From: Acidobacteriota bacterium
GTDB taxonomy: Bacteria > Acidobacteriota > UBA6911
Direction of reading: 5' to 3'
Length of the DNA: 64,000 nucleotides
Assembly: GCA_963664705.1 (NCBI GenBank)
Contig: OY761556.1
Span: 5,568,001 to 5,632,000 of the forward strand
The notes below the pieces were generated by a model, which saw nothing but the letters and a program-made list of their open reading frames with translations, did not search any database and had not been told where the DNA came from. Of the stretch, positions 42,085 to 63,232 are shown one piece after another; positions within the stretch are counted from its first letter, which is position 1, and every line of letters starts with the position of its first letter. The position numbers and the translations under genes are program-made.

Positions 42085-42645
42085 CTATTTGGCATGAGTT
42101 CTAGCAAGCAGTCGCCCAACCGTGGCAGGGTGGACTTTAAAAAGGCGTGCCGCATCAGCGGCAGTTTTATCTCCTTTTGTAACCATTCTGATAATCTCAG
42201 TCTGTTGTTGGGGGGTCAGCTTAGGTCTCCGTCCGCCAATGCGTCCTTCTCGTCGGGCAGCGTCCAAACCGGCTTTTGTTCGTTCCCGCAATATCGCCCT
42301 TTCAAATTCCGCAAATGCTCCAACCATCTGCATCATCATGCGCCCAGCCGGAGTCGTAGTATCGATAGCTTCGGTTAGGCTACGGAATCCGGTTTTGGCC
42401 TCACTTAATTTCTCCATGATTGTAAGAACATCGCGAAGGGAGCGAGACAATCGATCGAGTTTCCAAACTACAAGCACATCTCCTTTGCGCAGTTGTTCCA
42501 AAAGGCGATGAAGCTCCGGTCGGTCCCAGCGACCGCCTGAAGCCTTTTCACGAAAAATTCGCTCGCAGCCGGCACTTTTCAGGGCAGCAACCTGCAGGTT
42601 AGTTTCCTGGTCATTGGATGAAACACGAGCATAGCCAATAAGCAT
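42085..42645 (-). CDS. Serine recombinase (resolvase/invertase)
   Basis: GYARVSS, VVWKLDRLSR, FAEFER, GGRRPKL and C-terminal HTH. Confidence 0.93.
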   Translation of the reverse strand: MLIGYARVSSNDQETNLQVAALKSAGCERIFREKASGGRWDRPELHRLLEQLRKGDVLVVWKLDRLSRSLRDVLTIMEKLSEAKTGFRSLTEAIDTTTPAGRMMMQMVGAFAEFERAILRERTKAGLDAARREGRIGGRRPKLTPQQQTEIIRMVTKGDKTAADAARLFKVHPATVGRLLARTHAK

Positions 42646-43005: not shown

Positions 43006-43431
43006 TTACAATTCCTCCACAGGCACGGTTGTATTGCTCAGACCGTGGTAATAATTGACCATCTCGGCTGTAAAGGCCAACACGCAGTAGTCTGGGTCGT
43101 CCACCCCTTTGGGATAATAAACCTCAAATCCCTCGCGCCAGAGCAGGGCCTTGGTCTCCCGGTCCGTGCGGACCTCCATGGTCCCTGTGAACAGCGCTCC
43201 CTTGAACTGCGGCCCGTCGCAGTAATAGACCGAGGCTTTTCGGTTTTTTAGAAACTGCTGCGCCCGCTTGGAACTGAGAGTTGTGGAAAAAAGCTGCGTG
43301 CGTGAGCTTTCATGTTCCAACACCAGCATGGCTTTGATCTGGGGGAAACCTTGCTCGTTAATGGATGCTACGTAGGCCACGGCGCTGCTTTCGCGCAACG
43401 CGCGGACTTCGGATGCAATCGCTTCATTCAT
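43006..43431 (-). CDS. Pyridoxamine 5'-phosphate oxidase-like (general stress protein 26) FMN-binding protein
   Basis: S...GFP..KAM...FST..SS....Q...N.KASVY; YYPKGVDDPDY. Confidence 0.82.
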   Translation of the reverse strand: MNEAIASEVRALRESSAVAYVASINEQGFPQIKAMLVLEHESSRTQLFSTTLSSKRAQQFLKNRKASVYYCDGPQFKGALFTGTMEVRTDRETKALLWREGFEVYYPKGVDDPDYCVLAFTAEMVNYYHGLSNTTVPVEEL

Positions 43432-43874
43432 TGCGTTTTTACCTTCCCTGTGAGGTTTTCAAGAATCCGGCGGAGCGCGCCCTCAAAGACCATGATCTCC
43501 GAATCCGTGAAGCCCTCGTAAAAGATGTTGTTCATTTGCCGGGATACGGCTTGGTAATCGTCCCTCAGCCCCCGCGCGTCTTGGGTCAGCCGGATCCGGA
43601 CCTTGCGGCGGTCGGTCGGATCCAGGATCCGCTCGATGTGGCCCGAGGCCTCCAGGCGGTCCAGCATGCTGGTCAAGGTCGTGGTGGCAAGGCCCGTCCG
43701 GTCCGAGAGGCTGCAGATAGGGATGCCGTCCTCCTCCCAAAGCACAAAGAGAATCCTTCCCTGCGCCCCGTTGAATTGGTCGATGCCGTGGGCGGCAAGG
43801 AGTTTTTCAAAGACCCGGCCTTGGATTTGCTTTATCTTGCTAATCAAAAAGCCGCCGTTCGTTTTTCTTTTCAA
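43428..43874 (-). CDS. MarR-family regulator
   Basis: QGRILFVLW...TTLTSMLDRLE..G.I.R..D..DRR...I.LT. Confidence 0.9.
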   Translation of the reverse strand: MKRKTNGGFLISKIKQIQGRVFEKLLAAHGIDQFNGAQGRILFVLWEEDGIPICSLSDRTGLATTTLTSMLDRLEASGHIERILDPTDRRKVRIRLTQDARGLRDDYQAVSRQMNNIFYEGFTDSEIMVFEGALRRILENLTGKVKTQ

Positions 43875-43899
43875 ACCAAGCGCCTCCTCCTATATAGAA

Positions 43900-43917
43900 T
43901 AATACTATATGGTATTA
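43900..43917. promoter_or_regulatory. Probable MarR operator
   Basis: Near-perfect palindrome TAATACTATATGGTATTA just upstream of marR. Confidence 0.6.
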
Positions 43918-44340
43918 TAATAGTACATGGAATGCTTCTCACATGGTTTTTTGTTTGTAGGCGGAGTAGTGGCTGGTTGGTATCGACAGCTTGAAATCTC
44001 ATTGGCCAAGCTGAGGACCAAATAAAACATGTCAGCCTTAATGCCACCTTTGCTGATGGGAGAAATGCGAAATTGACATTTTGGCGTTATCTCCTCGAAG
44101 CCCGTTTTAAGACAATAACTCATTTGAACCAACCTTAAGCTGCTCGAGTTACAAGAAACAGGCTATTCGCATATATATGCTAATAGCTGCCCTGGAAACG
44201 CAGATGGGCTTTGGTTTTCTCAACAGGTAACACGTTGGTAACAAATATTTGTTAACTTCTTATCCATTCGTTTTGTCCAGTTGCGCTTATTTGGAGTCGG
44301 AGGGCATCGTATGAGAAAATTGATGTACCAAAAGAGCAAT

Positions 44341-46486: not shown

Positions 46487-46802
46487 AAAAGATCCCTCAA
46501 AAGCGCTAAGCTCACTGTGTGACCGACTCTGATCGATTCAGTTTGAAATTTTAACACGAAACGATCGTTACTTTCCTGAAGTCGCATTCGCGGAGATAAC
46601 GCCAAATTGTATATCTGCCACCATTAATGCTACATTCTACGCCAATCTACCCTTCTAGGATCGCCTTTTAATGGGAACTGGGCTAGATAATCGACCGTAT
46701 CATTAAGTATGAAATCATCTTCTTAGCGCTGGTAGGTGGACCCGGAGAAGTTGTTCGTCATAGCTCGTGGCTGACATACAATCTATCAAAAAGGAGCATA
46801 GA

Positions 46803-47555
46803 ATGCGCATCCGGTACCTGCTGCTTCTTGCTGCTCTCACGATCGCTCTTCAACACGGAATTACAAAAGACAAAATACTGAAGGAAAAGATTAACTCTGG
46901 CGATCGGGAGCGGAGCTATGTACTTTTCGTTCCAGAATCAATAGATCCAAACAAACCTGCACCTTTACTGATTACTTTGCACGGTTCCGGCCGCGATGGC
47001 TCGAGCCTGGTGGATCCTTGGAAGAAGCTGGCGAGAGAGAAGGGAATTATTCTTGCGGGTCCAAACGCATTGAGTTCTGGTGCCTGGATTACACCCACGG
47101 ACGGGCCCGTCTTCCTGCGGGATGTTGTCGATGCAGTGAAGGCCCGCTTCAGTATCGATTCAAAACGCGTGTACCTCTTCGGCCATTCCGGCGGAGGCGG
47201 TTTTGCAATCATTAATTCGATTTTAGAACCAAACTATTTTGCAGCCGCCGCAGTCCATGCTGGGGCTTTGCCGGTCCCAGAACAATTGGCTTCCTTCTTA
47301 CCGGCATCTCGAAGGGTCCCAATTTCAATTTGGGTGGGAGATCGCGATCCGTTCTTCCCCATGTCCGCCATGAAACCCACTGTGAATTTTCTACAGATCA
47401 ACGGATTTCCGGGGCAGTTTTCAGTATTGTTGAATCACGCCCACAATTACTACGGCATCGCAGATCGCGTGAACAAAGAGGCCTGGTTATTTCTTGAATC
47501 ACATGTCCTTGAAAATGAACCTGAATGGAACGAAATTCTTTTCAAAGAACGCTAA
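46803..47555 (+). CDS. Secreted alpha/beta hydrolase (PHB-depolymerase/esterase-like)
   Basis: PLLITLHGSG, RVYLFGHSGGG, G.RDP, H.H; AGGAG RBS. Confidence 0.85.
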   Translation: MRIRYLLLLAALTIALQHGITKDKILKEKINSGDRERSYVLFVPESIDPNKPAPLLITLHGSGRDGSSLVDPWKKLAREKGIILAGPNALSSGAWITPTDGPVFLRDVVDAVKARFSIDSKRVYLFGHSGGGGFAIINSILEPNYFAAAAVHAGALPVPEQLASFLPASRRVPISIWVGDRDPFFPMSAMKPTVNFLQINGFPGQFSVLLNHAHNYYGIADRVNKEAWLFLESHVLENEPEWNEILFKER

Positions 47556-47772
47556 GTACTGCCGTACTGGCCGCCCTTTCTTCGGCCAACGAATATTGCG
47601 ATGCTACAAAAGGCGAGAACCTTATCGAAGGGGGAAAACTGCGCAATTTTCATCGTGACGCTCCCATGATGTCGCGATCGGGGAAATTGTGCCAAAATGC
47701 TAATTTGCAGTCGTCCATGATGTGAGGAGGATGTTATAGTTGCGCGGTCCCACATCCCGCATGAGGAGTTCA

Positions 47773-48345
47773 ATGAAGAAATTATTTTTTATATTCTTTT
47801 TGTTCTCATCTTTGCCGGCAATTCTAGCCGCCCAAGAGGCACCCAAGTTTGAGGCATTCCTCGGTTATTCGCATTTCCGGATGCCAAGTGGATTTGATCT
47901 TGACGAGCTTTATCCAACCACAGAAGAAGCAAGGTTAAGTGGATTCGATATCACTATTACATGGAACATAAACCGATGGCTTGGTGCAGATGCCGATTTC
48001 GGGCATTATGATGGCAAGGTCAATTCAATGTTTGTAAAGACCGGTCGAATCAGCAGCCAAGACGCTTCAATCACCTCATATTTGTTTGGTCCCCGCGTGT
48101 TTTATCGCGTGAATCGATTTACTCCATTTGTCCATTCCTTATTCGGCGGTATGGCGTTAGGACGTGGACCGTACACTGGAAATGGGAGATCCGCAGCGGG
48201 TATTGCACTCGGGGGAGGCGTCGATATCAGCGTTGCCAGGCACTTTTCAGTTCGCGCAATTCAGGCTGATTACGTGAGAAGCGACTTTGTTCCAACGGGG
48301 CAAAATAATCTACGGTTATGCATTGGCGGAGTCCTTCGCTTCTGA
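47773..48345 (+). CDS. Outer-membrane beta-barrel protein
   Basis: Signal peptide; YLFGPR...PFVH.L.G...GGGVD...QADY; C-terminal Phe. Confidence 0.8.
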   Translation: MKKLFFIFFLFSSLPAILAAQEAPKFEAFLGYSHFRMPSGFDLDELYPTTEEARLSGFDITITWNINRWLGADADFGHYDGKVNSMFVKTGRISSQDASITSYLFGPRVFYRVNRFTPFVHSLFGGMALGRGPYTGNGRSAAGIALGGGVDISVARHFSVRAIQADYVRSDFVPTGQNNLRLCIGGVLRF

Positions 48346-48525
48346 GGTCGAGCCTTGGGGAATCTTACCGGCAAATATAAGTTAAGCCGCCGGTCTGATA
48401 CGCTTGGGTGTCACAGGATGGAATTGCCGTTGTCCTGAAATCAGCTTTGCCGAGATAGCGCCAAAATGGTAATTGACCTGTTTCAGAACTGTTTTCAACT
48501 TATCTGAAGCCTATAGGTTGGCGGC

Positions 48526-50008: not shown

Positions 50009-50173
50009 CTATTCTAAATTAAAGTTCCCGGATAAATTGTGTTCAAGGAGATCCGCTGAGGACGGCGACAAGGGAAACTTCCATTTTGGATCAAAATCGT
50101 CATCGGCGGCAGTAATTACCATTTTGGCGTTATCTCCGCGAACGCGACATAACCGGCCAATCGCTGCCCGTTT

Positions 50174-51310
50174 TTAGGCTCTGCGGAGTTTGCCCGCCTC
50201 TTTGATTATCTTGGTAAGGCGATTGGAGAGTCGGTTGAGGCATTTGCGTTCAACACCAATCGGCAGTCCGCGCCGAAACATCTCCATTGCACGTTGAGTG
50301 GCGTGCAATGAATCGATTACCCCATCTAAACCAGTTCGAATGGGATCTGACGGTCTCGGTTGAGGAACCAGGTGTCGGGGTTTTGAATGAGCCAGTTGAA
50401 ACTCTCTCTGAAGGTCTTTCAACGCCACTTCGATATAGAGCATTGTCATGTCCGGAGAAGTGTGGCCGAGTAATTTCATCAGTACAGGAAAACTGACGCC
50501 GGAGCGAAGCATCTCTGTGGCATAGGTGTGGCGAAACTGGTGTGGAACAATGCGAGTGGAGATTTCGAGAGAGTAACAAACTTCATGCAGATAATCGCGA
50601 AGTTGACGAACGAGAGCATACTTGGTGCTAGGCCGTGCAAGCAGTCGACCGTCAGGAGGACACGGATCTAGAAAACGAAAGAATCGCAAGCGTTGGATAA
50701 TCGCGACTATCGACGAATCCACCGGGACCATCCGTTCTGTTTTGAGTTTACCAAGTGGTACGTGAATGGCCCACTGGCGGAGACCGGTCGAGCGGAGGCA
50801 ATCGACGGGCAAATCGGCGCACTCGCCAATGCGCATGCCGGTATGGCGGAGGAGCAGAAAGACATTCGATCCCAGATCGTTGCGCTTGAGGAACTCCTTC
50901 TGCAGAAGCTGATCCTGTTCGGCGGTGAGCGGACGTGCAAGTCTGTGCGGGCGGCGAGGGATATCTTCACGACGAATCAAGCGGGCGACTTGAGGAAGCT
51001 GTTTGGTCCACGCCAGTTCTATGAACAGAGGGCGTAAAGCGATGAGCTTACCGATATAGGTGGATGTGGCGAGCGGAGGCGTCTGGGCGCGCAAGTGGGA
51101 CATCCAGCCGAGGAGGTGTGGCTCCCGCCGCAGTTGTTCGAGAGAATTCACCTCGGGGAAATGGGCGCCCAGATAAGTAAGGAAGTTGCGTACGGTCCCG
51201 CGATACTGGACCTGGCTTGCTGAGCCGAGCGCAATACAGAGCGAATCGACCGCGCGATCAAAGACATCAACCAGTGGATGTGAGAGGGGAGGACGCCAGG
51301 AGCGTTTCAT
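50174..51310 (-). CDS. Tyrosine recombinase B
   Basis: TGMRIGE, GKLK, HQFRH and LGH...Y catalytic set. Confidence 0.93.
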   Translation of the reverse strand: MKRSWRPPLSHPLVDVFDRAVDSLCIALGSASQVQYRGTVRNFLTYLGAHFPEVNSLEQLRREPHLLGWMSHLRAQTPPLATSTYIGKLIALRPLFIELAWTKQLPQVARLIRREDIPRRPHRLARPLTAEQDQLLQKEFLKRNDLGSNVFLLLRHTGMRIGECADLPVDCLRSTGLRQWAIHVPLGKLKTERMVPVDSSIVAIIQRLRFFRFLDPCPPDGRLLARPSTKYALVRQLRDYLHEVCYSLEISTRIVPHQFRHTYATEMLRSGVSFPVLMKLLGHTSPDMTMLYIEVALKDLQREFQLAHSKPRHLVPQPRPSDPIRTGLDGVIDSLHATQRAMEMFRRGLPIGVERKCLNRLSNRLTKIIKEAGKLRRA

Positions 51311-52353
51311 GAAGGGAGCCTCGGAAGGGGGCGGACTTGCAGCGCTACTGCGCGCGTATATTGCTGGTAAACGTCTTGTGGGGTGACCTGCACATAATGC
51401 AGGGTCGTCTGAATATCGGAATGCCCCATCAACTGCATAAGTGCCGGCAGGCTGATTCCGGCGCGTATCATATCGGAGGCGAAAGTGTGGCGGAACCGAT
51501 GCGGGTGAGCAAGCTTAATACCAGTACGCTTGCGGTGGTAACGGAACAATGACCTCAGTCCGGCCAGAGTCATACGGGTTCCGCGGGCCTGCCCCTTTAG
51601 CGAGACGAAAAGCGCAGCGGTGGCAACCTGGGGCCGTTCCATCCGCCGATAGTGGTCGAGGAGCTGCACGGTTTCCGGCGCCAGTGGCAGTAAGCGTAAT
51701 TTGTTGCCTTTGCCGCGTACGCGCAGCTGTGCTTCGGAGAGCAACAAGTCGTCCTGATTTAGACCCAACACTTCGGCCGAGCGCAGTCCTTGAAAAAGCA
51801 TCACTCCAACAAGAGCCAAATCGCGAGCCATGCGGAAACTGGACCAAAAACGTGCCACCTCGTCCACCGAGAGCGGAACAAGTTGGCGTTTGGGCACCTT
51901 CACTCGCAGCCGGCTCATGGCCAGCCGTCGACGGCCCAGGCCCAGCGGTCCACGCCGCAAATAAACATGCTGGAAGCCCTGTGCCATGGACGAGGGGGAG
52001 TCAGGAAACTGATTGCGAAGAGCGCGATCGGCAACGCCAACACGGTGATTGATTGTATAACTGGAAATCGGGGGTTGGTGGTTACACTGAAACTTCAGAT
52101 AATCCGGGAGAGTCGATTCGGTCAGGTCGGCTGTGCAAACATCGGCGGTGTGATGAAGACTCTCCCACCAGCGAACAAAATGTAGCAGGTAGTAAGCCCA
52201 TGCTCGCAGAGTAGTATCCGCCAACCGGCGGACATACTCGTGATCGAGGTAGCGATTGACCCAGCCAATCTCCTGACCAGTTTCTTGCTCGACCACACGA
52301 ACCGGGCTTTGTGCGGTGTTGCGAATCTGCGGGCGAATCACACAAAATTTCAT
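51307..52353 (-). CDS. Tyrosine recombinase A
   Basis: GLRSAE, GKGNK, HRFRH and MGH...Y; ATGA overlap with recombinase B; start tentatively MKFCV. Confidence 0.92.
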   Translation of the reverse strand: MKFCVIRPQIRNTAQSPVRVVEQETGQEIGWVNRYLDHEYVRRLADTTLRAWAYYLLHFVRWWESLHHTADVCTADLTESTLPDYLKFQCNHQPPISSYTINHRVGVADRALRNQFPDSPSSMAQGFQHVYLRRGPLGLGRRRLAMSRLRVKVPKRQLVPLSVDEVARFWSSFRMARDLALVGVMLFQGLRSAEVLGLNQDDLLLSEAQLRVRGKGNKLRLLPLAPETVQLLDHYRRMERPQVATAALFVSLKGQARGTRMTLAGLRSLFRYHRKRTGIKLAHPHRFRHTFASDMIRAGISLPALMQLMGHSDIQTTLHYVQVTPQDVYQQYTRAVALQVRPLPRLPS

Positions 52354-52390
52354 AGCAGAGCCAAGCTCCAGAAAAGAATGTGTATCAGAG

Positions 52391-52708
52391 TCAGGCAGCA
52401 GGAAGTTCAAGTACCTGGTAGACTCCATCTTTGAATGCGATCAGATCTCGCGCCAGGAGTTCATTACGGGCGCCGGTAAGTTCGTGGCGGTGATGAATCT
52501 CGAGGAGTTCCTCCATACGTTCGTCGGAGTAAAAACTCACACCATCTCGATTAGCAACTGAGACCAAGACCAAGTAGAGAAGCTTTTCCAAGCGGGTTAG
52601 TCCCTGATCGAAACCCTGCCGAAAAAAGCGATGGTCAATCCAACTGAAAGAACCGCTGATGGCGCGGAGTCGGTCCGGCTGTAGCGGTTGAGGTCGTTTG
52701 TTCATCAT
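52391..52708 (-). CDS. Small winged-helix-like accessory protein
   Basis: RLR.I.GSFSWIDHRF...LY..L..VA.R.G.SFYSD...YQVL.LP. Confidence 0.7.
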   Translation of the reverse strand: MMNKRPQPLQPDRLRAISGSFSWIDHRFFRQGFDQGLTRLEKLLYLVLVSVANRDGVSFYSDERMEELLEIHHRHELTGARNELLARDLIAFKDGVYQVLELPAA

Positions 52709-52787
52709 GCTTTCCCCATTTTGTACATGCCGAAATTAACGAAGCTATATGGGATGAATCAATATGTCGGGACTAAATCTAACAAGC

Positions 52788-53291
52788 TCATCGGCGGCTG
52801 CGGTGACGCTCCGACCAACGCCTCTCTCGCTCCCAAACTCGTTCGAGAGCGCGGCGACATGCATAGGAACAGAAGCGTTGCAGGGGCGACCGCCGGCTGC
52901 GGTGGAATTCTTGGTATCAACCAGGGCGATCGCAGGAACACGAAAATAAGTTTCTTATAATGACCCTCGCTTCGGGGGCCGGGCCCTTGTTTTGTTGCGT
53001 GCGCTCCTTTTGCCGCACTCTGTATCTGTGGCTTTGAACGCGGCGAACCTGCTTTCCACCATCAGTTTTGCGGTACTTTTGCCGGGCTTTCCACTCTCTC
53101 CATTTTCCCGCCTCATTGCGGCAATGCTCGCTACAATAGCGTGCTCGGGGGTGTTCCGGCCGGAATATGCGACCGCAGTCTTTCAGCAAACACGCACGGG
53201 CGCGCGGCCATCTAGCTTTTCGCCTGGTATGGGGTCTTGTTCCTTTTGCTTGATTTTGAAGGAGAATTATCGGATGTTCACGAGGGCCCAT
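52788..53291 (-). CDS. Two-Zn-finger basic protein with in-frame TGA at a Cys position (Sec or nonsense)
   Basis: CLLKDC...YCSEHC, then CDRPG[TGA 52919-52917]YQ...FCSYAC...; next stop at 52788. Confidence 0.6.
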
Positions 53292-53689
53292 GGGAGTTGC
53301 CTCTCCCAGAAGCTCAAGCCTCGAGGGGGACCCATTCCCCTTCGGGGCACACTGAGCACAATTGGATGCAATATCCTTAACCCTGCTCTTAGATTAGGAT
53401 CGGAAATAAAACCGGCGAGATTACTCGAAAATCAAATTCGATTTGCCGAGTAGTTGTTGTTGCGAAGCACCGTGAAAAAAAGCAGAAGTATAAGGGAAAA
53501 GCTATATTTATACTGCTTCACAACTTGAAGAATTACCGAAAGACTTTATAGACCAATTTTAAACATTGGCCGGTTATTTTGGACTTCCTGGGACCTTGGA
53601 AAACTTTCACAAATTAGGTAGGCATTCTTATACCTATTACGTTCTTGTTATTAGGAACAGTGGAGGACTTATAGGGAGGGTATTGCGCA

Positions 53690-54430
53690 ATGAGAAAGGC
53701 ATCTATTCTTATAATTTTCGCAGGGCTAGTTGTTTTTGTGCTCATTAATGTTCGATATATTTCGGGTTCTTGCATAACTCCCGGTCCTCCATGCCAGGAG
53801 TTTTGGCGTGCAAACGCGGTATTTGCTGGGCGTGTTATATCTGTCACCGACGACACAGCGAAATGGCCGTCTAATCTGAGCTATCAGGAACTGAATAAGC
53901 TTGATCCATCAACAGCCGTGCATGTGGTGTTTGATGTCAGCGAACCATTTCGAGGGGTAAGCGAATCCAAGATTGAAGTCCTAACAGGCAGTCGAGGTCC
54001 TAAGGTATGGTCTTCGGAGGCCTTTGATTTTAGAGTCGGGCAGGAATATATCGTCTATGCATCCCGGCTAACATCACGACCTGACCTTTATACCTCAGGA
54101 TGCGCACGGACTCGCTTGATCCAAAATGCGGCAGAAGATTTGGCCTATGCTCGATCTTTGGCTACGAGCACAGCAACCGGAGCCCAAATATTTGGAACAG
54201 TTTTTTCGCCCATAACTCAAAAACCCATAAGTGGCATCCAGATATCGCTCTTGCTGGGTCAAAAAAGTTGGAAAACTAAGACCAATTCGGATGGCGATTT
54301 CGTATTTACCGGAAAGCCCGTGGGTGATTATCAAGTATTGCTTCCCAGCGGAAGGCAAATTTCTGCCAGTGTTTTGGATGTCAAAGGATGCGCATGCATG
54401 GGAAAAATTCCGGATAGGTTGGACCGATGA
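53690..54430 (+). CDS. Exported protein: TIMP/NTR-like domain + carboxypeptidase-regulatory-like domain
   Basis: N-terminal TM; SC...PPC...AVFAGRV, F..G.EYIVYA...C.RT; TNSDG.F.F...P.G.Y.V. Confidence 0.7.
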   Translation: MRKASILIIFAGLVVFVLINVRYISGSCITPGPPCQEFWRANAVFAGRVISVTDDTAKWPSNLSYQELNKLDPSTAVHVVFDVSEPFRGVSESKIEVLTGSRGPKVWSSEAFDFRVGQEYIVYASRLTSRPDLYTSGCARTRLIQNAAEDLAYARSLATSTATGAQIFGTVFSPITQKPISGIQISLLLGQKSWKTKTNSDGDFVFTGKPVGDYQVLLPSGRQISASVLDVKGCACMGKIPDRLDR

Positions 54431-54510
54431 GAAGTAACTGATTTTGAGGAAATTTACTTTTTGGCGTTATCTCCCACAATCGGACATAACCGGCCAATCG
54501 CTGCCCGTTT

Positions 54511-55647
54511 TTAGGCTCTGCGGAGTTTGCCCGCCTCTTTGATTATCTTGGTAAGGCGATTGGAGAGTCGGTTGAGGCATTTGCGTTCAACACCAATCGG
54601 CAGTCCGCGCCGAAACATCTCCATTGCACGTTGAGTGGCGTGCAATGAATCGATTACCCCATCTAAACCAGTTCGAATGGGATCTGACGGTCTCGGTTGA
54701 GGAACCAGGTGTCGGGGTTTTGAATGAGCCAGTTGAAACTCTCTCTGAAGGTCTTTCAACGCCACTTCGATATAGAGCATTGTCATGTCCGGAGAAGTGT
54801 GGCCGAGTAATTTCATCAGTACAGGAAAACTGACGCCGGAGCGAAGCATCTCTGTGGCATAGGTGTGGCGAAACTGGTGTGGAACAATGCGAGTGGAGAT
54901 TTCGAGAGAGTAACAAACTTCATGCAGATAATCGCGAAGTTGACGAACGAGAGCATACTTGGTGCTAGGCCGTGCAAGCAGTCGACCGTCAGGAGGACAC
55001 GGATCTAGAAAACGAAAGAATCGCAAGCGTTGGATAATCGCGACTATCGACGAATCCACCGGGACCATCCGTTCTGTTTTGAGTTTACCAAGTGGTACGT
55101 GAATGGCCCACTGGCGGAGACCGGTCGAGCGGAGGCAATCGACGGGCAAATCGGCGCACTCGCCAATGCGCATGCCGGTATGGCGGAGGAGCAGAAAGAC
55201 ATTCGATCCCAGATCGTTGCGCTTGAGGAACTCCTTCTGCAGAAGCTGATCCTGTTCGGCGGTGAGCGGACGTGCAAGTCTGTGCGGGCGGCGAGGGATA
55301 TCTTCACGACGAATCAAGCGGGCGACTTGAGGAAGCTGTTTGGTCCACGCCAGTTCTATGAACAGAGGGCGTAAAGCGATGAGCTTACCGATATAGGTGG
55401 ATGTGGCGAGCGGAGGCGTCTGGGCGCGCAAGTGGGACATCCAGCCGAGGAGGTGTGGCTCCCGCCGCAGTTGTTCGAGAGAATTCACCTCGGGGAAATG
55501 GGCGCCCAGATAAGTAAGGAAGTTGCGTACGGTCCCGCGATACTGGACCTGGCTTGCTGAGCCGAGCGCAATACAGAGCGAATCGACCGCGCGATCAAAG
55601 ACATCAACCAGTGGATGTGAGAGGGGAGGACGCCAGGAGCGTTTCAT
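54511..55647 (-). CDS. Tyrosine recombinase B (copy 2)
   Basis: Identical translation to 50174-51310. Confidence 0.93.
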   Translation of the reverse strand: MKRSWRPPLSHPLVDVFDRAVDSLCIALGSASQVQYRGTVRNFLTYLGAHFPEVNSLEQLRREPHLLGWMSHLRAQTPPLATSTYIGKLIALRPLFIELAWTKQLPQVARLIRREDIPRRPHRLARPLTAEQDQLLQKEFLKRNDLGSNVFLLLRHTGMRIGECADLPVDCLRSTGLRQWAIHVPLGKLKTERMVPVDSSIVAIIQRLRFFRFLDPCPPDGRLLARPSTKYALVRQLRDYLHEVCYSLEISTRIVPHQFRHTYATEMLRSGVSFPVLMKLLGHTSPDMTMLYIEVALKDLQREFQLAHSKPRHLVPQPRPSDPIRTGLDGVIDSLHATQRAMEMFRRGLPIGVERKCLNRLSNRLTKIIKEAGKLRRA

Positions 55648-56690
55648 GAAGGGAGCCTCGGAAGGGGGCGGACTTGCAGCGCTACTGCGCGCGTATATTG
55701 CTGGTAAACGTCTTGTGGGGTGACCTGCACATAATGCAGGGTCGTCTGAATATCGGAATGCCCCATCAACTGCATAAGTGCCGGCAGGCTGATTCCGGCG
55801 CGTATCATATCGGAGGCGAAAGTGTGGCGGAACCGATGCGGGTGAGCAAGCTTAATACCAGTACGCTTGCGGTGGTAACGGAACAATGACCTCAGTCCGG
55901 CCAGAGTCATACGGGTTCCGCGGGCCTGCCCCTTTAGCGAGACGAAAAGCGCAGCGGTGGCAACCTGGGGCCGTTCCATCCGCCGATAGTGGTCGAGGAG
56001 CTGCACGGTTTCCGGCGCCAGTGGCAGTAAGCGTAATTTGTTGCCTTTGCCGCGTACGCGCAGCTGTGCTTCGGAGAGCAACAAGTCGTCCTGATTTAGA
56101 CCCAACACTTCGGCCGAGCGCAGTCCTTGAAAAAGCATCACTCCAACAAGAGCCAAATCGCGAGCCATGCGGAAACTGGACCAAAAACGTGCCACCTCGT
56201 CCACCGAGAGCGGAACAAGTTGGCGTTTGGGCACCTTCACTCGCAGCCGGCTCATGGCCAGCCGTCGACGGCCCAGGCCCAGCGGTCCACGCCGCAAATA
56301 AACATGCTGGAAGCCCTGTGCCATGGACGAGGGGGAGTCAGGAAACTGATTGCGAAGAGCGCGATCGGCAACGCCAACACGGTGATTGATTGTATAACTG
56401 GAAATCGGGGGTTGGTGGTTACACTGAAACTTCAGATAATCCGGGAGAGTCGATTCGGTCAGGTCGGCTGTGCAAACATCGGCGGTGTGATGAAGACTCT
56501 CCCACCAGCGAACAAAATGTAGCAGGTAGTAAGCCCATGCTCGCAGAGTAGTATCCGCCAACCGGCGGACATACTCGTGATCGAGGTAGCGATTGACCCA
56601 GCCAATCTCCTGACCAGTTTCTTGCTCGACCACACGAACCGGGCTTTGTGCGGTGTTGCGAATCTGCGGGCGAATCACACAAAATTTCAT
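55644..56690 (-). CDS. Tyrosine recombinase A (copy 2)
   Basis: Identical translation to 51307-52353. Confidence 0.92.
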   Translation of the reverse strand: MKFCVIRPQIRNTAQSPVRVVEQETGQEIGWVNRYLDHEYVRRLADTTLRAWAYYLLHFVRWWESLHHTADVCTADLTESTLPDYLKFQCNHQPPISSYTINHRVGVADRALRNQFPDSPSSMAQGFQHVYLRRGPLGLGRRRLAMSRLRVKVPKRQLVPLSVDEVARFWSSFRMARDLALVGVMLFQGLRSAEVLGLNQDDLLLSEAQLRVRGKGNKLRLLPLAPETVQLLDHYRRMERPQVATAALFVSLKGQARGTRMTLAGLRSLFRYHRKRTGIKLAHPHRFRHTFASDMIRAGISLPALMQLMGHSDIQTTLHYVQVTPQDVYQQYTRAVALQVRPLPRLPS

Positions 56691-56727
56691 AGCAGAGCCA
56701 AGCTCCAGAAAAGAATGTGTATCAGAG

Positions 56728-57045
56728 TCAGGCAGCAGGAAGTTCAAGTACCTGGTAGACTCCATCTTTGAATGCGATCAGATCTCGCGCCAGGAGTTCA
56801 TTACGGGCGCCGGTAAGTTCGTGGCGGTGATGAATCTCGAGGAGTTCCTCCATACGTTCGTCGGAGTAAAAACTCACACCATCTCGATTAGCAACTGAGA
56901 CCAAGACCAAGTAGAGAAGCTTTTCCAAGCGGGTTAGTCCCTGATCGAAACCCTGCCGAAAAAAGCGATGGTCAATCCAACTGAAAGAACCGCTGATGGC
57001 GCGGAGTCGGTCCGGCTGTAGCGGTTGAGGTCGTTTGTTCATCAT
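56728..57045 (-). CDS. Small winged-helix-like accessory protein (copy 2)
   Basis: Identical translation to 52391-52708. Confidence 0.7.
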   Translation of the reverse strand: MMNKRPQPLQPDRLRAISGSFSWIDHRFFRQGFDQGLTRLEKLLYLVLVSVANRDGVSFYSDERMEELLEIHHRHELTGARNELLARDLIAFKDGVYQVLELPAA

Positions 57046-57124
57046 GCTTTCCCCATTTTGTACATGCCGAAATTAACGAAGCTATATGGGATGAATCAAT
57101 ATGTCGGGACTAAATCTAACAAGC

Positions 57125-57628
57125 TCATCGGCGGCTGCGGTGACGCTCCGACCAACGCCTCTCTCGCTCCCAAACTCGTTCGAGAGCGCGGCGACATGCA
57201 TAGGAACAGAAGCGTTGCAGGGGCGACCGCCGGCTGCGGTGGAATTCTTGGTATCAACCAGGGCGATCGCAGGAACACGAAAATAAGTTTCTTATAATGA
57301 CCCTCGCTTCGGGGGCCGGGCCCTTGTTTTGTTGCGTGCGCTCCTTTTGCCGCACTCTGTATCTGTGGCTTTGAACGCGGCGAACCTGCTTTCCACCATC
57401 AGTTTTGCGGTACTTTTGCCGGGCTTTCCACTCTCTCCATTTTCCCGCCTCATTGCGGCAATGCTCGCTACAATAGCGTGCTCGGGGGTGTTCCGGCCGG
57501 AATATGCGACCGCAGTCTTTCAGCAAACACGCACGGGCGCGCGGCCATCTAGCTTTTCGCCTGGTATGGGGTCTTGTTCCTTTTGCTTGATTTTGAAGGA
57601 GAATTATCGGATGTTCACGAGGGCCCAT
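57125..57628 (-). CDS. Two-Zn-finger protein with in-frame TGA (copy 2)
   Basis: Identical to copy 1; TGA at 57256-57254. Confidence 0.6.
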
Positions 57629-58008
57629 GGGAGTTGCCTCTCCCAGAAGCTCAAGCCTCGAGGGGGACCCATTCCCCTTCGGGGCACACTGAGCACAATT
57701 GGATGCAATATCCTTAACCCTGCTCTTAGATTAGGATCGGAAATAAAACCGGCGAGATTACTCGAAAATCAAATTCGATTTGCCGAGTAGTTGTTGTTGC
57801 GAAGCACCGTGAAAAAAAGCAGAAGTATAAGGGAAAAGCTATATTTATACTGCTTCACAACTTGAAGAATTACCGAAAGACTTTATAGACCAATTTTAAA
57901 CATTGGCCGGTTATTTTGGACATATTGGGATTTACTCCATTTATAAATTGGAAGGTGTGGGATCATGAAGCTGTAGTATAAAAGTATAATTCAGCACTTT
58001 GGTGAATC

Positions 58009-58878
58009 ATGAACTGGCCAGCCCGAATCACTCTCGGGATTTTGGGAGTCGTCCTTCTTTCCGTGTCATACCTCTGTATCCGCCATTACACTCGTGAGGA
58101 CAACTCGATCAGCACTTCGATCCATCTCGAACCAGTTGTTCGCAATTCCCCCAATTTCCCCACGGTGCATTCGGGTGTAGATCAATTACCACAAGAAAGA
58201 AAATCGTTATCAGCGACAATCCCCTTTGGACGTTCAAATCCAAATTCGGGAGATCTGTCTAATGCCACTGCTGCGGAAAGAACAGTTCGTGTTGCCCTTC
58301 AGATGATTGAAGAGGGTGATTACAAAAAGGCCCGAGATTTGCTCCTGACGAGAATCATGGCTACGCCTCGCGGTAGCAATTATCTCAGGTACGGTAAGCC
58401 AGATCGTGTATCCATGCGAAAGGAAATTACGCTCACTGGAAAGGATCAGGTCCAGTTCGAAAATTGGGTTTACGAAAATGGCCGAGGCAGGATCTCGCGT
58501 GAGCTTGAGTTTATGGCTAACCCAGCAGACCGACAGACAGAAGAACAAGGGGCGTCCGAATTGTGGGCCCTCGGCTACAGCTTTTATAGTGAAGGAGGGG
58601 TCGAAAACGAGAAAAAAGGCAAAAATATTTTTGAGGATTTCCTCGTAATTTTTGCAAATGGTCCTGAAGATTTGGTTCAAGCAGCTCAAATTGATATTGC
58701 CGTTATTGACATTAAGCTAATGCATTCTGCTTCTACTCTTGGATACAGGATTGCAGCAGCTTCTGAGGCAGTAGAAGTGCTTAAGAAATTTATATTGAAA
58801 TGGCCAAATCACCCTAGAGCCAATGACGCGGGTATTTCACTAAAAATTGCGCAGGAATTTTTGCTTAATCCTAGGTAG
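58009..58878 (+). CDS. Membrane-anchored helical-repeat hypothetical protein
   Basis: N-terminal TM; RG..YLRYGKPD...E.W.Y (GWxTD-associated-like); C-terminal F..KWPNHP.A.DA TPR-like helices. Confidence 0.6.
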   Translation: MNWPARITLGILGVVLLSVSYLCIRHYTREDNSISTSIHLEPVVRNSPNFPTVHSGVDQLPQERKSLSATIPFGRSNPNSGDLSNATAAERTVRVALQMIEEGDYKKARDLLLTRIMATPRGSNYLRYGKPDRVSMRKEITLTGKDQVQFENWVYENGRGRISRELEFMANPADRQTEEQGASELWALGYSFYSEGGVENEKKGKNIFEDFLVIFANGPEDLVQAAQIDIAVIDIKLMHSASTLGYRIAAASEAVEVLKKFILKWPNHPRANDAGISLKIAQEFLLNPR

Positions 58879-59085
58879 TAGATCAACTTTCGATCCTATG
58901 ATACGTTCCAGATCGGGATATCCACTTACCCTACGGGGTGGCGGCACTTTGCATTATGGCGTTATCTCCGCGAAGCCGACATCAAAGGAGTATCGGAGTA
59001 TCCTCTATTCCAGCTGAGCTCTGTTGATTGTTCCCTTCAGGAACAGAAATCAGTTGCCTTGGGCTACCAAATAGGGAGATAAGAA

Positions 59086-59463: not shown

Positions 59464-59564
59464 TATCTCGCTTTGGTGCCCATTGTATATAAGGCGCTAT
59501 TTCCTACAATGAGACTACAGGAAAACAACGATTTGCGGCAGAGTGATTGTGCTGAAACAATGCC

Positions 59565-60344: not shown

Positions 60345-60740
60345 CGGGCACCTTCAGTTGTAGGCTATTGGATATATGCTCCTGGTAATTATACTCTGAT
60401 CATTGAGCATACTAACTCCCGAATTATTTGATGCTGTTTGTATCAGAATTTCGTGGATATAGCCCCCAAGTCCCAAGATACGGCCATCCTGGAATGTCAC
60501 CGAACACTGAAAAGCGGCCAGGAAAGAACACTTGAAAACCGGCCACTCCGATAGCGGAGAGTCAGTATCGAATAGATCCCCTCAAAGAATCAAGACAATC
60601 GAAAATTAAGCCAGCAGGGCCTGTGGGAAATGTGGGAAAGCCGCAGGCTTTTCCAAGTCTCCGTGGGAATCCGCGCTTTCCAGCGGATTTCCATGGAGAC
60701 GGCATTTTCCATAGGCCACAACGTGATGTCGACTGGACTT

Positions 60741-61493
60741 TCATGCGTCCTCCCCGGCAGCGCGACCAGCGCGTTGGTGAAGACGAAAACTCTTTCCCTG
60801 CATCTGAATGACTTCAGCATGAGCCAGGAAGCGGTCGAGAATGGCTGTGGCCGCCGGGATGTCGCCGAGGAACTGGCCCCAATCCTGAGTGGGCCGATTT
60901 GTTGTAATCAGCGTCGATGTTCTTTCGTGACGGCGCACGAAAATCTCCAATAAATCCTCCGCGCCACTGGGACCGAGCTTCTTCATGCCGAAGTCTTCGA
61001 GGATCAGAAGATCGACTCGCGTGAGTTGATCGACAAGCAAGCGCCGTTCGCCGGTGGCTTCCGCTTCCGCAAAATCCTGAGCCAGGTCGAAGACGCTCCG
61101 AACAAGGGCTCTATGCCCCGCACGAATGGCCCCGACGGCGATAGCGATTGCGATATGGGTTTTGCCGATGCCGGGCGGTCCAATCAGCAGGACGCCCTGA
61201 TGTGAGGCAATGAAGCGAGCTGTGGCCAAATCAACGAGCTTTGCGCGAGGAATCTTGGAGTTAAAAGAGAAATCAAAATCAGAAAGCTCCTTGATCTGGA
61301 CAATGCCGGCCTGTTTGAGACGGCGAGCGAAGAGGCGGTCCGAGCGCCGAGCAAGCTCGTCCGAGACGAGGAGTTCGAGAAACTCCATGTAATCCAGAGG
61401 GGCGCTACGGGCTTGTTCAAGGCGACCAGGCAGCGCTTGAACAATGCCGGAAAGACGGAGATGCCGGAGCTGTGACAGCAGTTGCGGGTTCAT
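60741..61493 (-). CDS. istB: IS21 helper ATPase
   Basis: GPPGIGKT, LLILED, ITTN and AILDR motifs. Confidence 0.95.
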   Translation of the reverse strand: MNPQLLSQLRHLRLSGIVQALPGRLEQARSAPLDYMEFLELLVSDELARRSDRLFARRLKQAGIVQIKELSDFDFSFNSKIPRAKLVDLATARFIASHQGVLLIGPPGIGKTHIAIAIAVGAIRAGHRALVRSVFDLAQDFAEAEATGERRLLVDQLTRVDLLILEDFGMKKLGPSGAEDLLEIFVRRHERTSTLITTNRPTQDWGQFLGDIPAATAILDRFLAHAEVIQMQGKSFRLHQRAGRAAGEDA

Positions 61494-63064
61494 AAAAAAT
61501 CCTCCAGGCGATAATCGGTTAAGGGACGAATGATGGGATGTTCGGAAAGAAGAGTTTGGACTGGCGATTTTGCCGCCTGTTGTTCAGTTAGCCGCTGCAG
61601 ATCCTTATAGCGAAACAATCGGTTGACGGTGGCCGTCCGGGCAGCCGCCAACACACGTTCGCGGGGATGCTGACGCGTCAAACCGAGGACGCCCTGAATC
61701 AGCCGTAGAGCCCGCACGCCTCGTTCTTCGATGGCTGCTTCGGCCCATTCGCGCAGTGCCGTTCCGACACGTTCGCAACGGGCGAGCAACTGGGCTGCAA
61801 AAGCCTTCTGCGAGGAAGGTGCCACCCCCGGTTCACCGGAACGGGGAGCAAACTGGCCCGGTCGCAAGCGTGTATAGACGGCGACTTGGGTTTCGTCGTG
61901 ATACAGGCGCACGAGGTTGCGATCCCAACGCACCCGGATCTTTTGTCCCAGAAGATGTAACGGTGCCGGATAAAAAGCTCCGTCGACTTCGACATGCCCA
62001 TCGGGGTGAATGGTGCGTTGCCCGGTGCGGAAGAAAGCAAACGGCTCTGTAGCGAGCGGTTGCAATGCTGCTTTCTCCGCCTCAAGAAAATGGGTAAAGA
62101 CCTGACGGCGGGTGGTGCCGTGAATCCGCAAGCGAGCGATGGTTCTATTCCAGCGCCGGAGATGCTCGTTCTGCTCGGCGAGGCTATTGAAGCGGCGACC
62201 TTTGAGAGCGTTATCTTTGACATAACCACCGCTGCGTTCCTGCTTGCCGTTCTCCTGGGGATTGCGCGGACGGGTAGGCAAAGGCGTGAAGCCCCAGTGC
62301 GTGGCAAAGGCTGCATAGATCACGTTAACGTCCGGATCATAGAGGCATGCCCGGACAACTGCTGCCTTCAGATTGTCATGCCTAATAACCTTCGGAACGC
62401 CGCCCAGATCGGTAAAGGCGTTTTCGTGCAGGCGAAGAAAGGTCTCGAGGCTTTGATCCCAGACAGCTTCTTCATAACCGTGCCGGGAGTGACACAAAGT
62501 CAAACGGAACACCCATGGACGTTTCCATTGACCGCTTGTCTCATCAAGCGTGGGAACTCCCTGGAAAAAATCAACCTGGCCTTCTTCACCAGGCGCGCTA
62601 TGAAATACCCCGACTGCGCGACGAGCCCGGGGCAGTTTCCGGATGAAACGTTTGACAGCTTCGTAGCTGTATCCGAATCCGTAGTCCTCGCCCAGATCCT
62701 GCCAGATGCGCTGAACAGACAAACCGGCGTCCAGCTTGGAGACGATCACATCGCGATAGCGGGCTGCCGAAGATCGTGGTGGGGGATCGGACCCGGCGAA
62801 CACTTTGGCCGGATTTGAATCCGAGCCGGCGGTCACTTTGGCCGGTTTTGGCGGATCGGATCCCTCAAACTCGTTGGTTTCAGTGACTGCAGGCTCCCCA
62901 GAGCCGGGGAACACTTTGGCCGCTTTTGCTTTCTGCAGGCGATCGTATCGGGAGATGGTTTCTCGCCGGACTCCCGTTTCAGCTTCTATGCGCCGGTATG
63001 TCCAACCGAGTTCAAGAAGAGCAGTAACTTGTTGCAGCTTTGGCGTTTTCAAGTAGTTCGGCAC
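61490..63064 (-). CDS. istA: IS21 DDE transposase
   Basis: PGEEGQVDF, GGVP....DNLK and P.ENGK.ER motifs. Confidence 0.95.
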   Translation of the reverse strand: MPNYLKTPKLQQVTALLELGWTYRRIEAETGVRRETISRYDRLQKAKAAKVFPGSGEPAVTETNEFEGSDPPKPAKVTAGSDSNPAKVFAGSDPPPRSSAARYRDVIVSKLDAGLSVQRIWQDLGEDYGFGYSYEAVKRFIRKLPRARRAVGVFHSAPGEEGQVDFFQGVPTLDETSGQWKRPWVFRLTLCHSRHGYEEAVWDQSLETFLRLHENAFTDLGGVPKVIRHDNLKAAVVRACLYDPDVNVIYAAFATHWGFTPLPTRPRNPQENGKQERSGGYVKDNALKGRRFNSLAEQNEHLRRWNRTIARLRIHGTTRRQVFTHFLEAEKAALQPLATEPFAFFRTGQRTIHPDGHVEVDGAFYPAPLHLLGQKIRVRWDRNLVRLYHDETQVAVYTRLRPGQFAPRSGEPGVAPSSQKAFAAQLLARCERVGTALREWAEAAIEERGVRALRLIQGVLGLTRQHPRERVLAAARTATVNRLFRYKDLQRLTEQQAAKSPVQTLLSEHPIIRPLTDYRLEDFL

Positions 63065-63232
63065 CTATATCCTCCGTCGTCGAAACGACAGAGAATAGCG
63101 GAAAGCCGCTACCTGGAGTGGCCGGTTTTCAAACGTTCGGTCGTGGCCGCTTTTGGGTGTTCGCTAACACCTGGAAATTGAGATCGACGTAGAATGTAGT
63201 ATTGTGGGTGGGATTGATCCTGAAAAACCCAA

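Follow-up and report, generated by a model that had tools for sequence, protein, structure and literature searches.

The stretch of DNA analysed here, referred to as the window, comprises 64,000 nt (positions 5,568,001 to 5,632,000 of contig OY761556.1) of the closed 6.89 Mb genome of a member of the Acidobacteriota (source genome, G000). It harbors two copies of a compact element with two tyrosine recombinase genes, inserted into an array of short repeated sites and cassette-like genes. Self-comparison of the window revealed a single long repeat, formed by copy 1 at 50149..53577 and copy 2 at 54486..57914, both on the minus strand. Each copy measures 3,429 bp from inverted repeat (IR) to IR and their alignment has 0 mismatches, in agreement with the first-pass annotation, made from the sequence letters alone, which had noticed two apparently identical 3.43-kb copies with perfect 13-bp IRs. 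The IR ATAACCGGCCAAT is perfect at all four ends, on the plus strand at the recombinase-B end (50149..50161; copy 2: 54486-54498) and on the minus strand at the accessory-gene end (53565..53577; copy 2: 57902-57914).

Copy 1 is located in target site H, whose left part with leader, left arm and spacer ending in GAC lies at 50111..50148 (+), and copy 2 in site I (left part 54448..54485, +). The left flanking 7-mers are ACGCGAC for copy 1 and ATCGGAC for copy 2. On the right, both copies carry TTTGGAC (53578..53584; copy 2: 57915-57921; +), which is the constant 7-mer of the element and its predicted circle spacer, followed by the displaced right arm of the site (H: 53585..53595, doubling as the 5′ end of the cassette that follows; I: 57922..57932; both +). 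These flanks are as first described; the accompanying statement that no target duplication exists depends on definition, since GAC or GGAC is directly repeated if TTTG is counted as part of the right end. The cassette between H and I (53585..54485, +) contains a gene at 53690-54430 with 46% GC, and the next one, between I and J (57922..58980, +), a gene at 58009-58878 with 45% GC. In contigs from four runs of one sample, a contig of 958 nt runs at single-copy depth from the right end of copy 1 across the cassette and into copy 2 at its left end. Thus, both window copies are real and not an assembly artefact, and both sets of junctions are supported by contigs from a sample that may be the assembly's own source and then gives no independent support.

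The genes of the element are all located on the minus strand. Recombinase A, a TnpA-like protein, is encoded at 51307..52428 (copy 2: 55644-56765) with a likely start at 52353, and recombinase B, which is related to the long Tn554-like partner but shorter, at 50174..51310 (copy 2: 54511-55647). Both are PF00589 proteins with an intact R-K-H-R-H-Y set, as had been claimed. Recombinase A shows 38% identity to the short recombinase of a Tn554-like module on plasmid pBD2 and recombinase B shows 29% identity to the long partner in that module; pBD2 is listed among plasmids with such modules in PMC3414803. Furthermore, the 28 near-full-length plasmid matches of recombinase A (32-36% identity) are all actinobacterial. 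Recombinase B has 378 aa without the long N-terminal extension, and its stop codon lies 12 bp from the IR, so there is no room for a third gene such as TnpC.

Two accessory open reading frames (ORFs) lie upstream of recombinase A. The first encodes a winged-helix protein of the helix-turn-helix (HTH) type with 105 aa (52391..52708; copy 2: 56728-57045), whose best fold matches, to plasmid replication-initiator domains, are weak. Its structure model has a predicted local distance difference test (pLDDT) score of 83, a single-sequence prediction with pLDDT 48 not being used. No structure matched at E 0.001; five of the first six matches were plasmid initiator or Rep-DNA structures (E 3e-3 to 1e-2, template modelling (TM) score 0.52-0.59). 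We take these initiator structures to be RepA_N. The second ORF (52788..53291; copy 2: +4337) is Cys-rich and Zn-finger-like and extends over 124 aa up to an in-frame TGA at 52917-52919, which occupies a Cys position (CDRPG-stop-Y) with Cys in homologues; the frame is conserved for 42 codons past the TGA. This TGA is common to the G000 variant, L011 and L106. Among 120 homologues, Cys is found at the TGA position in 83 and the motif is absent in 35, many of which continue in another frame. The source genome has two SelA matches, and the TGA may represent selenocysteine, another form of recoding or a shared nonsense change. The window element is a real and active-looking member of a Tn554-related family.

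The source genome contains two more copies with 93% identity, inserted in the same site family and likewise with TTTGGAC on the right. All four copies (4/4) therefore sit at family sites next to this 7-mer, and the proposed catalogue of other genomic copies revealed no unrelated targets. One right-hand 7-mer per genome is also found in the other multi-copy genomes (G051 7/7, G052 3/3, G040 2/2, G018 2/2; 18/18 with G000), and the left flank equals the right 7-mer in only one of these 18 copies. To compare target spacers with the 7-mers of the elements, 40 distinct insertions were used, with three rows in wrong orientation and one duplicate dropped and one probably mispaired row (L297) kept. 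Identity at positions 1 to 7 amounts to 18, 11, 12, 36, 37, 39 and 39 of 40, and the mean shared suffix is 4.2 nt with the cognate 7-mer vs 1.2 nt with the 7-mers of other lineages. In lineages with a 7-mer ending in GGC, GTAA, GCC, GTC or CGT, the targets carry matching ends. Two of the four source-genome copies share only 3 nt with their target, and the earlier suggestion that about 3 bp of spacer identity suffice is borne out by this one-sided identity of 3-4 bp across the 40 insertions. The parallel drawn with conjugative transposons needs refinement: the constant 7-mer is neither a coupling sequence of that kind nor the carried-over flank of Tn554 or SE elements, and it points to an exchange at one edge of the spacer.

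The circle predicted from these ends has a 13-7-13 junction, and metagenome contigs of the Joint Genome Institute (JGI) were searched for IR-spacer-IR junctions with a spacer of 5-9 bp allowed. All four matches have a spacer of exactly 7 bp. In three of these contigs, which come from relatives and carry recombinase genes, the right end is joined to the left end; two represent the same variant, and one, with 3,973 bp, is a circular permutation of an element. The fourth match, L274, has no recombinase gene and was not counted. The junction is thus present in relatives; for the window element itself none was seen in the read and contig search, and no viral contig shows the pattern (0 matches). 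L274:1270-1400 and L251:1455-1515 contain clusters of IR palindromes and a mini-element of about 60 bp, without recombinase genes.

The element belongs to an Acidobacteriota family that is related to actinobacterial Tn554-like TnpA/TnpB pairs. Of 7,999 candidates scored, at least 4,072 are related to recombinase B, and the same layout was found at 18 loci in species genomes, with two recombinases in every complete copy examined. The IR core is kept by members with protein identities of 40-50%. The accessory slot, which consists of two genes upstream of A, occurs in two forms: a Zn-finger ORF with an HTH ORF (window, L011, L100, L105, L106), or a DUF6431/Zn-ribbon gene with a DnaG-type primase gene (L012-L026, L096-L104). 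RIT-like modules of three recombinases (L225:5335-9482 and L227) are likewise preceded by this HTH ORF and, upstream of it, a Cys-rich ORF, so this accessory pair is shared across tyrosine-recombinase elements. Miniature inverted-repeat transposable elements (MITEs) of 183-255 bp have the same ends and lie at sites of this kind in G002, G026, G030, G038 and G042, and one is found in the source genome. The latter (251 bp, G000:C1:2937478-2937728) carries the 7-mer TTCCCGT at a target ending in CCGT, the second site flavour. Distant relatives with the same IR are located at unlike targets, one of them beside a Y1 transposase gene. The contig L223 (G016:C167) is bounded by two left ends of the element, inverted with respect to each other and enclosing host-type genes, which may be a composite arrangement or an assembly break. 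Prevalence of the family is patchy and poorly measured: recombinase A was found in 2/301 genomes of a phylum sample, with 6 candidates scored per genome. A description of the family or its sites was not found in the open-access literature, most subscription journals lying outside this search and the supplement tables of PMC3414803 possibly listing members, and the family is apparently undescribed.

The target sites were searched with a sequence profile, which detects 36 sites at ≥15 bits in the source genome and 0 in 2 Mb of shuffled single-strand sequence. Among these 36 sites, 27 end in GAC; of 29 neighbours within 10 kb, 27 face the same way, and the median gap is 1.2 kb. Six empty sites lie in the window, at 44068..44116 (+, spacer ending CGT), 46570..46618 (-, GAC), 47660..47708 (-, GAC), 48429..48477 (-, GAT), 58943..58991 (+, GAC) and 59478..59526 (+, weak site, GAC). 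The GAC end first attributed to the empty sites thus applies to four (46592, 47682, 58957, 59492) and not to two (44082, 48451). Similarly, the 7-bp spacer is a property of the junction of the element, while the symmetry centre of the site itself is 5-6 bp. A strict site pattern occurs in 17/51 genomes of the order, including 14/29 other genomes of the genus. With a profile built from 10 targets in other genomes, the occupied source-genome targets rank 1st, 7th, 13th and 15th of all positions, and additional leaderless sites emerge within the arrays. The leader TTTTGGCG is absent from 8/10 same-order targets; hence it is dispensable, and the core palindrome is the recognised part. The resemblance of the IR to the leader read backwards, remarked on in the first reading, is real (mean 6.6/13 over 36 sites). 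A preference for sites with a long arm, suspected from the four source-genome copies, was dropped, as in a soil contig the right end adjoins a short arm.

The sites are real breakpoints. One cassette of G039 starts at the GAC end at two locations, each preceded by a different left flank, and terminates at a site whose right flanks differ; the same genome also has a 776-bp duplicate with 99% identity that stops at GAC. A 300-bp homology in the source genome ends at a GAC breakpoint in the same way, and the gene of the H-I cassette has two homologues in G037, each starting at the GAC of a site with different left flanks. The cassette-like genes are short and of low GC content and include toxin-antitoxin pairs. 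In G051-G054, a more distant group, a site version of its own forms direct arrays, often with an inverted partner, and the elements of this group insert there. In G052 (L264-L271), the inverted partner has a spacer ending in CGT and is located 50-60 bp upstream of the cassette sites, without hairpin covariation.

The fixed insertion point and orientation, the constant 7-mer, the one-sided 3-4 bp identity that covaries with lineage, the IR-7-IR junctions of relatives, the MITEs and the breakpoint base shared with the cassettes are demonstrated by the sequences. We consider it moderately probable that the element is a compact Tn554-related transposon which inserts at the GAC| point of imperfectly palindromic cassette sites, passes through an IR-7bp-IR circle, exchanges strands at the GAC edge and is a parasite of sites belonging to another recombinase. 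The element would likely move as the circle, with recombinases A and B binding the IRs and the degenerate arms of the target. One pair of strands would be swapped at the GAC edge of the spacer, where 3-4 nt match, and this single strand exchange would be used in both excision and integration. The junction may then be resolved by replication, in which the Rep-like HTH protein would assist, as would the DnaG primase in relatives; that the accessory slot codes for a primase or a Rep-like protein agrees with this route. As a result, the spacer of the target would always come to lie on the B side and the 7-mer of the element on the other.

The Tn554 family (PMC3414803; Tn552-II in PMC12486829) and the actinobacterial tnpAB(C) modules resemble the element in two adjacent, co-oriented and homologous tyrosine recombinases in the same order (A 38%, B 29%), recombinase A being of the TnpA type as judged on the pBD2 module and the actinobacterial plasmid matches. 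Further likenesses are the target specificity and the 7-mer of the target on one side with a different one on the other. A circle with a 7-bp spacer, known from Tn554, is predicted here as well; the IR-7-IR joint seen in three contigs from relatives may stem from such a circle or from a tandem dimer. Tn554 differs in a large TnpB with a long N-terminal extension and in TnpC, which follows TnpB but is missing from some members; neither is found here. In SE, Tn554 and Tn552-II, the flank of the donor (6-7 bp in Tn554) is carried to the new junction, the right one in Tn554 (PMC10214605, PMC12486829); the footprint of the present element therefore differs, its 7-mer being constant (18/18). Unlike in Tn554, the 7-mer brought in lies upstream of A and not at the downstream end, and the element has perfect 13-bp IRs, 3-4 bp of target identity, repeated intergenic targets, an HTH/Zn or primase module and MITEs.

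SE/GInts are likewise non-conjugative, with two catalytic tyrosine recombinases, a biased circle spacer and tolerance of mismatched spacers, and differ in four core genes (IntA, Tfp, IntB, Srap), a variable 6-bp footprint, a median length of 15.7 kb and Gammaproteobacterial hosts (PMC10214605). In contrast, the present elements measure 3.3-4 kb and combine two recombinases with a constant 7-mer; they lack the core set of four genes, to which Tfp/GinC and a large IntB belong. RIT elements are also compact and cargo-free with overlapping recombinase genes and terminal IRs, and three-recombinase modules in the same order are preceded by the same HTH ORF; RIT elements differ in three overlapping recombinases and a 34-bp IR as against two recombinases and 13 bp, and the best full-length matches of our element are Tn554-like (PMC3414803, PMC5737581). 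Thus, the element works like Tn554 and SE, and by gene set and footprint it is a member of neither. Elements that hunt recombination sites form a further group for comparison. IS1111-attC elements reportedly insert at cassette sites in fixed orientation. The IS1202/ISAjo2 elements at pdif (PMC10132070) and the group IIC-attC introns (PMC3001079) are described as selfish, with fixed orientation at module or cassette sites. All three differ in using DDE/DEDD transposases or intron machinery, whereas the present element uses tyrosine recombinases at the apparent crossover base of the sites, in a host site system that is undescribed.

Different chemistry for the same element was considered as well: both strands could be exchanged over a 3-4 bp core, with TTTG belonging to the right end, or over the whole spacer with biased repair, so that the element would be cut and pasted with a 3-4 bp target repeat. 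Integrated sequences alone do not separate these routes from a single-strand exchange, and empty sites are common. However, tyrosine recombinases normally cut 6-8 bp apart, a spacing that speaks against a 3-4 bp core, and the junction of the element has 7 bp as opposed to the 5-6 bp centre of the target. Were both strands exchanged over a mismatched spacer, replication should yield two classes of product that differ in the side on which the 7-mer of the element lies; only one class is seen, and an exchange of one strand at the GAC edge is the simplest reading. The replication-type accessory genes would also be left unexplained, and the related Tn554-type and SE elements are strand-biased (PMC10214605, PMC12486829). 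We regard such chemistry as unlikely. More weight, though still a tentative one, is due to the view that A and B, or close family members in trans, build the arrays by excising and inserting the cassettes, which would be non-autonomous elements with decayed ends. Crossover base and polarity are the same for cassettes and element, the site flavours GAC and CGT are mirrored in the 7-mers of elements and MITEs, and the leader resembles the IR; in addition, the junction 7-mer of L272/L273 resembles the seven bases after the leader, and TTTGGAC is joined to a reversed leader in a single soil-metagenome contig. An integron integrase is missing from the source genome, and IR-bounded remnants are found in G039 (mini-element) and G038 (MITEs). 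On the other hand, recombinases A and B have no match in G039, G037 and G038, though sites are present there. G039 is 99% complete in about 10 contigs and has 9 sites as well as the recently duplicated cassette, and none of its 16 recombinase matches forms an adjacent co-oriented pair. The IRs are near-invariant over protein identities of 40-50%, while the arms of the sites are degenerate and lineage-specific; MITEs, as true non-autonomous derivatives, keep perfect IRs, which the cassettes lack; and distant relatives use unlike targets. The question raised at the outset, whether the element is the engine of the array or its parasite, is not settled by these data and leans to the parasite, which we favour with moderate confidence.

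The identity of the sites bears on the same question. If they were dif-like (pdif-type) modules moved by the host XerC/XerD, the element would be a hunter of dif sites like the IS1202 family. An 11-6-11 reading with inner AA/TT can be made, the left arm matches the XerC arm of the source genome at 5.4/11 and the leader box the XerD arm at 6.2/11, and paired inverted sites exist in G051-G054. Against this, the right arm reaches no more than 4.7/11 with the XerD arm (30 sites, as for the left arm), 27/29 neighbours are direct instead of alternating, and no copy lies at the chromosomal dif, so that of the pdif features neither the host-dif arm match nor the alternating inverted orientation is found, and inverted pairs occur in G052; we judge this origin to be quite unlikely. 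The chromosomal dif is located at G000:C1:2036985-2037012, beside xerD, at the convergence point of the FtsK orienting polar sequences (KOPS). Very improbable in our estimation are atypical integron attC hairpins in an array without integrase, with the element as an attC hunter. The short low-GC genes with toxin-antitoxin pairs, the palindromic two-site layout in G051-G054 and the 2-3 of 30 sites that fold well would suit attC; no GTT triplet is present at the crossover, the bottom-strand hairpin of attC with its complementary R and L boxes is not found, RNAalifold gives no consensus hairpin on the top strand, cognate complementarity is missing from 17 cassettes (p 0.12-0.72) and 17 paired sites (p 0.11-0.42), and 10 IntI-bearing regions contain 0 sites. 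The hairpin model, unsupported by single-site folding, arm matching, RNAalifold, complementarity in the circular form and paired-site covariation, is largely refuted. IntI is present in 9/51 genomes of the order and in neither G000 nor G039. By these comparisons, the sites appear to be neither attC nor dif.

Several points weigh against a parasitic, strand-biased transposon. The strand bias is deduced from integrated copies only, and a head-to-tail dimer would give the same IR-7-IR junction, the contigs being read within 2.5-kb flanks. The circle junction of the window element was not seen in 7 contig sets and 1 raw-read run, in which contigs drop rare forms and the raw run comprised 2 reads. 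The HTH protein matches known folds weakly. G039 retains an IR-bounded mini-element of about 60 bp and must therefore have carried the family at some time, and repeats are easily lost from draft assemblies. Moreover, cassettes and element have the crossover point and polarity in common, the reversed leader is nearer to the IR (6.6/13) than the displaced right arm is (3.6/13), and the search for an alternative cassette recombinase gave no candidate: none is consistently adjacent to the sites, and recombinases nearby are IS91-linked, island-type or primase-linked.

Some further features of the arrays were recorded. An identical 5-bp spacer deletion is found in three source-genome sites (G000:C1:5884033, 5887801, 5894142) and spacer deletions also occur at G000:C1:5879198 and 4129881, one of the five being 3 bp; spacer-deleted sites are possibly scars of aberrant recombination. 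In the window, three consecutive sites (46570-48477) point the opposite way to the other sites of the array, which suggests an inversion or the insertion of an inverted block. An inverted 91% copy of MarR and pyridoxamine-oxidase-like cassette genes lies at 43013-43919; the corresponding genes sit between sites at G000 5870967-5872116, and the ends of the window copy stop short of sites. A serine resolvase gene (42085-42645) just upstream of the first site is tied to the sites by no test. At the end of the array (60495-63169), an IS21-type element with rve transposase and IstB has imperfect terminal IRs. Rfam gives 0 matches in 42000-64000. A site-bounded cassette of G039 (L060:8971-9852, L062, L064) encodes a protein with a 7-residue repeat in three diverged copies, and its reading as an RNA array was rejected on account of this protein repeat.

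How Tn554-type, SE and RIT elements transpose is in large part an unsettled question (PMC10214605). The family described here offers a minimal test case, with perfect 13-bp ends, MITEs as substrates and an identity rule of 3-4 bp that natural covariation reveals, and its footprint rule is opposite to that of Tn554, so that the choice of strand becomes directly testable. The sites mark a cassette system of Acidobacteriota with fixed breakpoints that would be neither integron nor dif module. It is a less likely, rather doubtful possibility that A and B are themselves the recombinase of this system, a mobile and self-replicating 'integrase on a transposon'; if true, they would assemble the arrays by exchanging a single strand at sites that are double-stranded, needing only 3-4 bp of spacer identity, and this activity would be retunable through the last bases of the 7-mer. 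A directional two-protein integrase with a target preference set by a few spacer bases could aid gene insertion in a phylum that has few tools.

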